A DNA stretch of 58,725 nucleotides, from the IMG/VR virus record IMGVR_UViG_2718218104_000006; one strand, 5' to 3'. Source of the stretch: a virus (lineage: Duplodnaviria > Heunggongvirae > Uroviricota > Caudoviricetes). Made by a program: the position numbers. This document shows, one piece after another, positions 45,001-48,000 of the stretch (its first letter is position 1; every line of letters begins with the position of its first letter).

Positions 45001-48000
45001 GTTCCCATTCCGCCCTGACCATGACCAATCAGATGATGAGGATCGTCCGCTGGCTTACCACAACACGCACACGGCTGTGTCTTTACCCAGCGTGTGTATT
45101 TCTCATTTACCCAGCGGCGACGTTTAGGTCGTTTCATGAAGGATTCCGGAGACTCCGGATCAACGGCAATGCTGACCACCGTCTTTTCCTGTGGTGGGTT
45201 TTGCTGGTGGGCGTGAGGCAGCGGCGCAAGATTTTTTGTGCGCTGCTTCAGTATGATGGTGGCGGTCTGCTCTCCCGGTACGATGTCGCTTTCACGGTAC
45301 ATTGAGCGGATTTTTTCCGCACGCAACCCCAGCGAACGACGTAATACCGCTTCCGGTAGCGCGTCCGCCACCTGATTGCGGACCGCCCACCAGGATAATT
45401 CAGCCAGAGATAATTCACGCTCCTGCGTACCGCTTATTGCGTGACCGATGACGTCAATCATCCATGCTGACAGGTTTTGATGAGCAAGTTGCTCGAGTGA
45501 TTCGGATGTCTGGTCACGCAGCTGGTTGTCGCAGTGCCAGCACAACACCATTGCGCCGGTACCATAACGGTGAATAACGGTTTCACTGTGATGATAGTCA
45601 CCATGAGGCCACTGGCAGGATTTGACATGACGCAACAGCCAGTCAGACAGTGCACCAGCGCCACCAACAGCACGAATCACACGCTCATTGCTGAAAAACG
45701 GCAGTAATGATTTATCCTCCGCCAGCGGCTGGCGAACGGCAGGGACGATGCCGGACGGCAGACCGCGCATGCTTTTCGGCTCCGGCTCCACAAGCACTCG
45801 AGGGTTATGGAATACCTGCATGGATTCACGGCCTGGTTTAAGGACCACCACCCCAAGTTCCGGTACCGGAACAGGTCGAAGTAATACCCGCACGTTACCT
45901 CCAGATGCGTTGCTGGAATGTGCGGGACGGACGCGGTGGGCGCTCGGAGTACGGCAGCCTGACGTAGATTATCCAGTGACGATAATCGAGGCTGAGGGCT
46001 TTCCTAAACTCATACCCACGTCTGCGGTAGTTCTGAATCAGCCATTCGGCCTGTTCTTCAGTGCATGGGGCGTGCCGGAACCAGTCAGATTTGAATGCAT
46101 GAGAACGCCGCCCGTGCCTGCTGGCAAAGACGGCTGAATTATCAGAATTGTGTAGTCTGGAATTTTGCGCCATCGGCTTTCTCCGGTGGCACAGTGTTAC
46201 TCAACAGGGGTTCAGCCCTGCGCTGAATTGTAGATGAATTCACTAATCTTCAAAAGCAGAAAAACCAGCCTTAATCCCAGCTTCTTTCAGAGACGGCAAC
46301 GATGTGACAAATTCATTTGCACGCAAAATAAAACCATCCGTCACAAGCCCATCCACAAAATGAATTAACGCAGCTCCACTCTTCCTTTGTTGAGACTGTA
46401 AACATTTAATACGGCAGTGGCTGACAATAGCGCCCTTCTCAACGCGCACAGTATAGAGGCCATCTTCACTAAAAATTTCACGTAATTCTTCGATTCTCAT
46501 CAACAGAATCCTTCCAGATAAATAGCACTCCCCTGTTCGGGGTCCATCCCTCTTCTCCCTGCGCGCTACTTAAGTATTTTTGATTCTATTCCGGCGCCGT
46601 CCGGAACTTCAAACGCGTTGAAAATAAAAACAAAAACCCGCCGAAGCGGGTTAAGTGCGGGTGCGTTGAGGATGCCTGACACATCAGAGGTGGCGAGGGA
46701 TTTCTCCCCCGCCTGGTCTCTTACTCCTCAGGTTCGTAAGCTGTGAAGACAGCGACCTCCGTCTGGCCGGTTCGGATTCGTACCTCGCAGAGGTCTTTCC
46801 TCGTTACCAGTGCCGTCACTATGACGATTAAACAGATGACGATCAGGGCGATTAACATCGCCTTTTGCTGCTTCATAGCCTGCTTCTCCTTGACCTTTCG
46901 GTCCGTAAGAGGCAATCTATATGTGACGAGCATATAGGGGCCTCACTTCGATTTATAGTCGGGTGGGGCTTTTATCTATCTGCCGTTGGTGTTCATGCCC
47001 GAGGCAGATAGCCTCAAGCACCCGCAGCAATCCTACTTAACTCTGCCGTTACAGCAAACCGTTTTCGCCCGATATGGGAATTCCCATATCGGAATGAATT
47101 CAGTTCACCTGGCGAGGCTTAGCGTACAATTTTTTCCGTTTTGTGAGCTGCCCCTACATGCCGCTGGCGCGGCATCCGGAAAAAGAATCCACGTCCTGAA
47201 GGACGAGGATGTCAAGTGCCTTTCCTGGTCCAGCCATATTTTTTGAATGCAGGCGCCGCTTCATCGGTTTGTAGCCATTCTGCAAATCGACGGGTTTCAT
47301 CATTTGCATCCTGACGTACTGTAATGTTCATATCACGCCATATCACGTAGTCTGGCGCTATTTCCACGACATCACCAATTTCTGGATTACTGGCTGCCCA
47401 GTCAGCCCAGGTTATCCAGACATCTGCTCCAGGCTGATTCTCAAGAGCCTTACGTGCAGTTCCGCTATTGGGCGCATATAAAATAATATTTTTTCGGATT
47501 GCGGCGACAGTTTCTATATTCCCTTTACGTCCGGCAATATCTTCCCAGACGCCAGTGCCTGATGTATTACTGGTACCACCACCATCATTAACAATTACGC
47601 CAATCCCAGGTCTGGTCAGGTCGTCAATACTCCGGATATTTTTAGGATTACCTTTCTTTACCAGTAAAATACTTTTTCGCAGATAAAGAGGCTGAATATC
47701 TTTTTCACTGAAGCTGTCTTTATGGTCCCGAATGATAGCCAGAGCAGATTGTTCTGATGCGCCAAACAAGATATCTGCATTTTTTTTGGCATCTTCATTC
47801 CATTTGTTCTGTGGGCCGTAATGAACGTTCACTATAATACCTGTTTTTTCGGCATAAAGTTTGGCTGCATCAAGCAAGGCTGTATGCGGGCCACCAGGAC
47901 CATACAGATTGATATCAGCATAAGCAGCAGAAGACAGGAATATTAAAAAACCTGCCATTATGTTCCTCATAAAAAACTCCTTTTATTGGTTATCATGAAA

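Follow-up and report, generated by a model that had tools for sequence, protein, structure and literature searches.

A probable hok/mok/sok type I toxin-antitoxin locus with a predicted Sok antisense RNA in a lambdoid prophage of Escherichia coli O157:H7

Main finding

The window analysed here (the whole 58,725-nucleotide stretch of IMG/VR virus record IMGVR_UViG_2718218104_000006) contains, with a probability that we put at about 0.9, a hok/mok/sok type I toxin-antitoxin locus whose structure is intact; it would lie in the early-right (nin) part of a lambdoid O157:H7 prophage and act in the manner of the plasmid R1 system. The peptide family, the leader match, the RNA folds, the covariation and the antisense hairpin were all computed here; the places where transcription starts, the processing and RNase III cleavage, the toxicity and the biological role are carried over from homologous systems. 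The locus is an ordinary, canonical copy of the known hok/sok kind, and public genome records already list its toxin gene. Hok/sok is among the best-understood type I toxin-antitoxin systems and the discovery value is small; the useful outputs are proposed coordinates for Sok and mok, both unannotated in the RefSeq records examined, a caution on the strand of Rfam RF01794 matches, and the relationship of the locus to K-12 hokD and, as inferred below, to "ckf".

Prophage setting and existing annotation

The 601 nt around the locus are 100% identical to many E. coli O157:H7 genomes, and the whole locus matches up to 10 places per genome. It is flanked by paa/adfO (47212-47970) on one side and a rem homolog (46243-46503) on the other, and hok shares its coding strand with the cro-like gene, the replication gene P, rusA and the lysis genes. 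Comparison of PV15-279 with the window gave 99.8-99.97% identity over 41327-53837, with divergence in the late region and in the positions of IS elements, so annotation was carried over for the well-matching part only. RefSeq annotates a single CDS at the locus, "hokD: type I toxin-antitoxin system toxin HokD" (window 46721-46876, minus strand), and neither a mok nor a sok feature is annotated there in any E. coli RefSeq record examined. Near-identical copies in PPompW prophage records are labelled "gef: phage maintenance protein".

The literature pairs ckf (z2054) with adfO (z2053) (PMC8565820), and from its position beside paa/adfO we infer that the window hok is ckf/z2054 of O-island 57 (OI-57). 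If that identity holds, the STEC virulence marker "ckf" would be the toxin of a self-regulating toxin-antitoxin module and not a host-directed factor.

The preliminary description had placed the locus at 46700-47100, a span that holds in part: the locus extends lower, its 3' UTR with the fbi element and the terminator running down to about 46632.

The toxin gene and the mok reading frame

The toxin gene (46721-46876, minus strand; WP_032287685.1, hokD in RefSeq) encodes a 51-aa peptide, MKQQKAMLIALIVICLIVIVTALVTRKDLCEVRIRTGQTEVAVFTAYEPEE, which matches the Pfam family HOK_GEF (PF01848) across profile positions 1-42 of 42 with E=7.1e-22 and 77.2 bits (cut-off 22). This bears out the earlier identification of a 51-aa Hok/Gef toxin, which occupies the last 51 codons of a 70-aa ORF, starting from the ATG at 46876. 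The NCBIfam Hok models gave sub-threshold matches only (44.3 against a curated cut-off of 73) and so do not explain the RefSeq name hokD.

The upstream extension, previously described as mok-like and in frame, is likewise present. It adds 19 codons from an ATG at 46933, giving a predicted mok frame of 70 codons (46721-46933, minus strand) that stays open into hok, in the same layout as the annotated K-12 mokC/hokC (mokC, b0018). In the window and 17 homologs the mok ATG is in frame with that of hok and 57 nt upstream of it; in 7 other homologs the distance is 58 nt and the frame differs. One or other spacing thus applies to the window and to 24 of the 27 loci covered by the scan of homologs, the sole leader-bearing exception being L026. 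According to the published view of R1, what counts is that mok is translated as far as the start of hok, the Mok product being unimportant (PMC9841398), and the mixture of 57- and 58-nt frames agrees with this.

The putative mok Shine-Dalgarno sequence, GAGG (46941-46944, minus strand), lies 7 nt before the mok ATG; GAGGC is invariant across the 23 aligned loci described below, and GAGG is also the mok Shine-Dalgarno sequence of R1 (PMC9841398). That of hok, AAGGAG (46886-46891, minus strand), is predicted to be sequestered in a local hairpin whose helix is 90.7% paired over the 23 loci, an arrangement that would agree with coupling of hok translation to mok translation.

On the opposite strand, a 64-aa ORF spans 46743-46937; it was rejected as a gene, being simply the antisense of hok.

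Ends, elements and folds of the hok mRNA

The full-length mok-hok mRNA is predicted to run over about 392 nt (46632-47023, minus strand). Its 5' end at 47023 was set from the start of the Rfam model RF01794, GGGUGCUUGAG, and from the start of conservation, and its 3' end from a rho-independent terminator (46652-46635; AACCCGCTTCGGCGGGTT followed by TTTGTTTTT) and its T-run, located by a terminator scan. A candidate weak promoter was read from the sequence at 47030-47057 (minus strand), with a -35 of TTGCTG (47057-47052), a 16-nt spacer and a -10 of TAGGAT (47035-47030), with 6 nt separating it from the +1 G (47023). A consensus promoter scan of 46500-47250 did not report this hok/mok promoter; in the alignment, leader-bearing homologous loci carry a -10-like hexamer (TAGGAT, TAGAAT, TATAAT, TATATT or TATTAT) equally far from GGGYGC.

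In the minimum free energy (MFE) fold of the full-length RNA, nt 1-13 pair with nt 353-365 (z=-6.9 against shuffled sequences). The former are the predicted tac element, GGGUGCUUGAGGC (47011-47023, minus strand), and the latter the fbi element in the 3' UTR (46659-46671, minus strand; GCCUCAACGCACCC region), which was placed by the folds and by covariation. In the same fold the ucb element or anti-Shine-Dalgarno of mok, AAGCCCCAC (46971-46963, minus strand), masks the mok Shine-Dalgarno sequence at 46944-46941, the role for which ucb was defined in R1 (PMC9841398). When the 3' end is cut back in silico to 46672-46690, so that fbi is lost, the MFE fold switches to tac/ucb pairing and pairing of the mok Shine-Dalgarno region with dcb. 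In these models the switch corresponds to the refolding from closed to open form described for plasmid R1 (PMC9841398).

Removal of fbi also brings out, as part of the MFE fold, the predicted Sok-target stem-loop of the processed mRNA (46909-46944, minus strand). It consists of the mok Shine-Dalgarno sequence GAGGC paired with dcb GCCUC (46913-46909), an inner stem of CUAUAUG and CAUAUAG, and a 7-nt loop, CUCGUCA (46930-46924). A YUNR (U-turn) motif is required in the antisense-target loop, as work on R1 established, and the window loop holds one, CUCG.

Directly after the stop codon the folds place a GC-rich stem-loop (46692-46713, minus strand; helix 16), 95.7% of which is paired over the 23 loci. 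It is likely to be the end-protecting stem of the processed mRNA, by analogy with a stem at the corresponding place in processed R1 mRNA (PMC9841398).

Comparative and covariation evidence

A scan with one genome per species returned 34 loci, from which 23 distinct full-length loci, including that of the window, were aligned. The genera represented are Escherichia, Shigella, Kluyvera, Pseudocitrobacter, Photorhabdus and Pantoea, in addition to one unnamed enterobacterium. When the window fold was mapped onto this alignment, 88.6% of cells were paired, against 41-46% in controls with the partners slid by 1-3 columns; pairs changed on both sides numbered 30 against 10-16, and the covariation score was 0.191 against 0.06-0.09.

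The tac-fbi helix is 90.9% paired in the 23 loci and contains three pairs with compensatory change, among them pair 4/403, where 14 sequences have U-A and 7 have C-G. RNAalifold independently recovered both this helix and the ucb/Shine-Dalgarno hairpin, the latter with several compensatory pairs; the ucb/Shine-Dalgarno helix shows compensatory change at four pairs. The helices of the truncated form (tac/ucb and Shine-Dalgarno/dcb) are formed in 98.8-100% of cases and are invariant, which is compatible with the model and provides no covariation evidence for it. Column-wise, the upper target hairpin was only 56.8% paired in the 23-locus alignment, as a result of misalignment in a hypervariable stretch. 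When each locus was folded separately, the target hairpin was present in 23 of 23, at -10 to -14 kcal/mol and with differing stem sequences.

Two of the homologs, L005 and L031, have a degraded tac or a frameshift.

The predicted Sok antisense RNA and its promoter

Sok is predicted as an RNA of about 55 nt on the plus strand (46925-46979). Its start at G 46925, 8 nt inside mok, was obtained by transferring the start of the annotated sokC through the K-12 alignment, with both ends uncertain by a few nt. The predicted RNA folds into a 9-nt single-stranded 5' tail, GACGAGCAU, a hairpin at 46934-46975 and a short U-tract of UUUU that is followed by AUCUAU, at -21.4 kcal/mol; folding of 46920-46978 gave z=-4.1. 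This tail complements the target loop as well as the start of mok. The overall architecture is that of the annotated 59-nt SokC and is found in 22 homologous loci as well.

By positional homology, the Sok promoter is predicted at 46890-46918 (plus strand), with a -35 of TTGACC (46890-46895; 5/6 matches to consensus), a 17-nt spacer and a -10 of CAATCT (46913-46918; 2/6 matches). The K-12 locus has TTGACC-17-CACTCT at the same place, upstream of the annotated sokC, and other loci have TTGCCT-17-TAACCT or TTGCCT-17-TAATCT. Conservation of this region is inseparable from that of the overlapping hok Shine-Dalgarno sequence and dcb. A sokW "pro-less" construct with a mutated -10 has been described, and the antitoxin of hokW-sokW depends on its promoter (PMC8621323); judging from the mutagenic primers, the mutated 7-nt sokW block appears to lie at the position equivalent to the window -10.

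The preliminary description had expected Sok on the plus strand at around 46880-46970, and both strand and interval agree well with our prediction, covering the promoter at 46890-46918 and most of the RNA at 46925-46979. It had also pointed to plus-strand promoter and terminator prediction as a check, and here the outcome was negative: a generic sigma-70 and terminator scan of 46500-47250 reported no promoter or terminator on that strand, the Sok promoter candidate included. Its output comprised the terminator of the hok mRNA, that of paa and, on the minus strand, a single promoter-like site of no relevance to the locus. Sok was therefore delimited by positional homology and folding, and its coordinates are a homology-based prediction that should be good to a few nt.

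Of 5426 complete E. coli genomes, 608 contain the 111-nt Sok region in full, usually as a single copy, and none of them has it annotated; in about 590 E. coli genomes the whole region is kept at an identity of at least 99%. In other hok loci the match is limited to the first 40-49 nt of this region. A literature search found no study of the window Sok and no expression, toxicity or processing data for the locus.

Proposed mechanism

Under the R1-like reading, the weak promoter would give rise to a stable mRNA of about 392 nt, closed by pairing of tac at its 5' end with fbi at its 3' end. In this closed form ucb would mask the mok ribosome-binding site, keeping off both ribosomes and Sok. Slow trimming from the 3' end would then take away fbi, whereupon the 5' end would pair with ucb and the mok Shine-Dalgarno sequence would shift into the dcb hairpin, whose loop would serve as the entry site for Sok. 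As long as the unstable, plus-strand Sok of about 55 nt (approximately 46925-46979) is present, its 5' tail would pair with this loop and the mok start, blocking mok translation, and the Sok-mRNA duplex would be cut by RNase III. Once Sok is absent, mok would be translated, the sequestered hok Shine-Dalgarno sequence would be opened and the 51-aa membrane toxin would be made.

Biological role

The module may serve to maintain the prophage, to assist lysis, as reported for hokW-sokW, or to exclude other phages. One alternative accepts that the module is intact and holds that its main role is something other than plasmid-style post-segregational killing, namely lysis or progeny release coupled to prophage induction, or phage exclusion. 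In its induction-coupled version, read-through of the early-right operon may provide hok transcripts and disturb the Sok promoter, which is convergent with it. This would suit the shared orientation of hok with the cro-like, replication (P), rusA and lysis genes, and it has a precedent in the Sp5 paralog hokW-sokW, where mitomycin C lowered sokW RNA and raised HokW in a way that depended on RecA, and where deletion halved phage release (PMC8621323). However, a paa terminator-like hairpin (47205-47192) stands between the operon and hok, and the prophage, which has IS insertions and pseudogenes in related strains, may not be inducible. On balance we consider such a main role possible, at well under even odds. 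It concerns the biology of the locus only and does not conflict with the molecular mechanism proposed above.

We would also offer, as a speculative idea that is on the whole unlikely, that the Sok/target cassette is a lineage-specific specificity variant that could insulate the prophage hok from other Sok RNAs in the cell. The Sok body is found once per genome in 608 of 5426 E. coli genomes, compared with as many as 10 paralogs in a genome for the rest of the locus. As hok has the orientation of the early-right operon, read-through on induction could silence Sok, and Hok would then be an auxiliary factor for lysis or timing, or would guard against loss of the OI-57 (paa/adfO) prophage.

Decay and the strand of the Rfam match

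A reading that would undercut the main one treats the locus as a hok remnant that has decayed and lost its function, in the way of the IS-disrupted, point-mutated or rearranged copies on the K-12 chromosome, with no working Sok or no translatable hok. Such loci do exist, K-12 hokC with IS186 beside it and K-12 hokD without its entire leader being examples, as are the degraded tac or frameshift of L005 and L031, and the window Sok -10 is a poor match to consensus. Against this, that -10 is of the CANTCT type also found at the annotated sokC, and every element is present and pairing, from the promoter -10, tac, ucb, mok Shine-Dalgarno sequence and ATG, dcb and hok Shine-Dalgarno sequence to the intact 51-aa ORF, 3' hairpin, fbi and terminator. 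The retention of the Sok region at 99% identity or more in those roughly 590 genomes likewise argues against decay, which we regard as improbable.

The Rfam scan of the whole window returned RF01794, "sok antitoxin", at 46874-47023 on the minus strand (103.9 bits, E=1.6e-22; gathering score 59), with the match covering the full model, 1-157. The Rfam match anticipated in the preliminary description was thus obtained above cut-off, but on the hok-sense strand and not on the antisense strand. Its consensus starts at the 5' end of the hok mRNA and ends with the hok AUG, i.e., it is the hok-mRNA leader in the sense direction. The K-12 hokC control (locus L002) behaves in the same way, with the model on the minus strand at 502-654 and the curated sokC ncRNA on the plus strand at 553-611. 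The match therefore certifies a hok-type leader and not the antisense RNA itself, which RF01794 would place indirectly, as the reverse complement of the inner part of the match. Despite the family name and the minus-strand match, the notion that the antitoxin is itself a minus-strand RNA of about 150 nt at 46874-47023, with no plus-strand antisense, has a negligible chance of being correct, since it is already refuted by the K-12 control and runs against the extent of the consensus, the plus strand of the window scores 15.2 bits only, and a sense RNA would be unable to act as an antisense inhibitor of mok. Automated pipelines that use RF01794 would put "sok" on the wrong strand.

Comparison with known hok systems

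The R1 hok/mok/sok (parB) locus resembles that of the window in its tac, fbi, ucb and dcb elements and its mok Shine-Dalgarno sequence GAGG; it also has the coupled hok translation and the antisense RNA over the mok start that are predicted for the window, and the two share a predicted refolding on 3' truncation. The R1 locus is plasmid-borne, whereas the window locus lies in a prophage. Moreover, mok is out of frame with hok in R1, unlike in the window, where it is in frame; both layouts occur among the homologs.

[quoted passage not shown] Its toxin HokW, a close paralog of the window toxin, is 44% identical to R1 Hok (PMC8621323). Hok toxicity, neutralisation by Sok, RNase III cleavage and 3' processing have been shown for hokW-sokW (PMC8621323) and R1 (PMC9841398). 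Like the window locus, hokW-sokW is prophage-borne, and according to its primers it has an identical 5' leader, GCGGGTGCTTGAGGCTATCTGCCTCGGGCATGAACACCAACGGCAGATAG, and a Sok -10 that appears to be at the same place. It differs in belonging to another prophage, in its Sok/target region (GTTCAGCATGGATTGAGCCTC compared with GACGAGCATATAGGGGCCTC in the window) and in the C-terminus of Hok (VDYESEK compared with TAYEPEE).

The K-12 hokC/mokC/sokC (gef) locus is 81% identical to the window over the aligned locus and also has an in-frame mok 19 codons upstream; its Hok (L012) is 80% identical to that of the window. In sokC the -35 TTGACC, the 17-nt spacer, the CANTCT-type -10 and the position of the Sok start are all as predicted for the window, and SokC and the predicted window Sok are single hairpins of 55-59 nt. 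In contrast, the target loop is CUGAACA in K-12 hokC and CUCGUCA in the window, the Sok hairpin bodies also differ, and an IS186 insertion has cost K-12 hokC its fbi and terminator, both of which the window has kept.

The hokD (relF) locus of the cryptic Qin prophage of K-12 is colinear with the window and about 99% identical to it across the CDS, the 3' UTR, where fbi and the terminator lie, and the rem homolog that follows downstream. The two toxins differ by one residue, and RefSeq gives both the same gene name. The homology ends about 14 nt upstream of the hok ATG, beyond which K-12 has relBE in place of the leader, without tac, mok or Sok; matches to the locus at 60% coverage show this as well. 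Given this colinearity and the replaced leader, the window locus represents the complete form of the truncated hokD, and shows the K-12 gene as it would have been before relBE took over its leader.

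Strand of the sok annotation

The Rfam family RF01794 ('sok antitoxin') matches the window at 46874-47023 on the minus strand, the strand of hok itself, and a similar arrangement is seen at the K-12 hokC locus (L002), where the match covers 502-654 (-) while sokC lies at 553-611 (+). The RF01794 model is written in the sense of the hok mRNA, running from the 5' end of the transcript to the hok AUG. Matches to this family lie antisense to the real Sok RNA, and annotation pipelines that copy the match would place sok on the wrong strand. A sok gene annotated straight from RF01794 would also be approximately 100 nt too long.

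Sequences flanking hok

A perfect 24-bp palindrome, CCGATATGGGAATTCCCATATCGG, is situated at 47069-47092, between the terminator of paa and the -35 element of hok, and was absent upstream of the other hok loci in the alignment. A protein could bind here, or the palindrome could form a hairpin. The neighbouring gene, paa/adfO, encodes an AcfC-family adhesin (47212-47970, -). From its position beside paa/adfO, we infer that the hok gene at 46721-46876 (-) is 'ckf' (z2054), which STEC papers count among the virulence factors or risk markers of O-island 57. If so, a marker of STEC virulence or risk is in fact the toxin of a toxin-antitoxin module.

The small RNA isrK is known from a Salmonella prophage. 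Its Rfam model aligned over its full length, albeit with a score of 24.9 bits that falls below the threshold of 50 (E = 0.0027), with the hok 3' UTR at 46631-46712 (-), a stretch that comprises the protective hairpin, the 3' pairing element fbi and the terminator. This resemblance may reflect either chance similarity between terminators or a distant relationship.

Variation among homologous loci

Across loci L003-L031, the ATG of the mok leader frame lies either 57 nt upstream of hok, in frame, or 58 nt upstream, in another frame; in L026 it is replaced by ATA. In L005 and L031, the 5' pairing element tac has decayed or hok is frameshifted. Hok sequences 93-98% identical to that of E. coli were also found on tiny contigs of unrelated genera (a 275-nt contig of Acinetobacter idrijaensis, L011; a 431-nt contig of Xanthomonas pisi, L015) and in a MAG (L036). 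The tiny contigs seem to be mislabelled or to stem from contamination with E. coli. An 'Actinobacillus phage' record (H92) shows 88.9% identity across the whole locus.

Other features of the prophage

Rfam identified the small RNA STnc100 at 41691-41899 (-; 175 bits) and, adjoining it at 41630-41689 (+), a match to the anti-GcvB small RNA AgvB whose score of 56.6 barely exceeds the threshold of 56. A short distance upstream of this pair are two tRNA genes. The four features, which lie within 41630-41899 and 42012-42241, all fall in the late-regulatory region of the prophage. An IS1203/IS629-type element of the IS3 family occupies 37575-38884 and includes an ALIL frameshift pseudoknot (37910-38026). 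The related E. coli strain PV15-279 carries its IS copies at different positions, with an additional copy at the site equivalent to window position ∼50335.

Comparison with K-12 hokD

An 86-aa ORF homologous to Rem is present at 46243-46503. The hokD gene of the K-12 Qin prophage (rem-hokD-relE; L039) represents the same locus as window positions 46200-46890, with the leader removed from ∼14 nt upstream of the ATG. In Qin, relBE occupies the place of this leader, while hokD retains an orphan fbi and the terminator.
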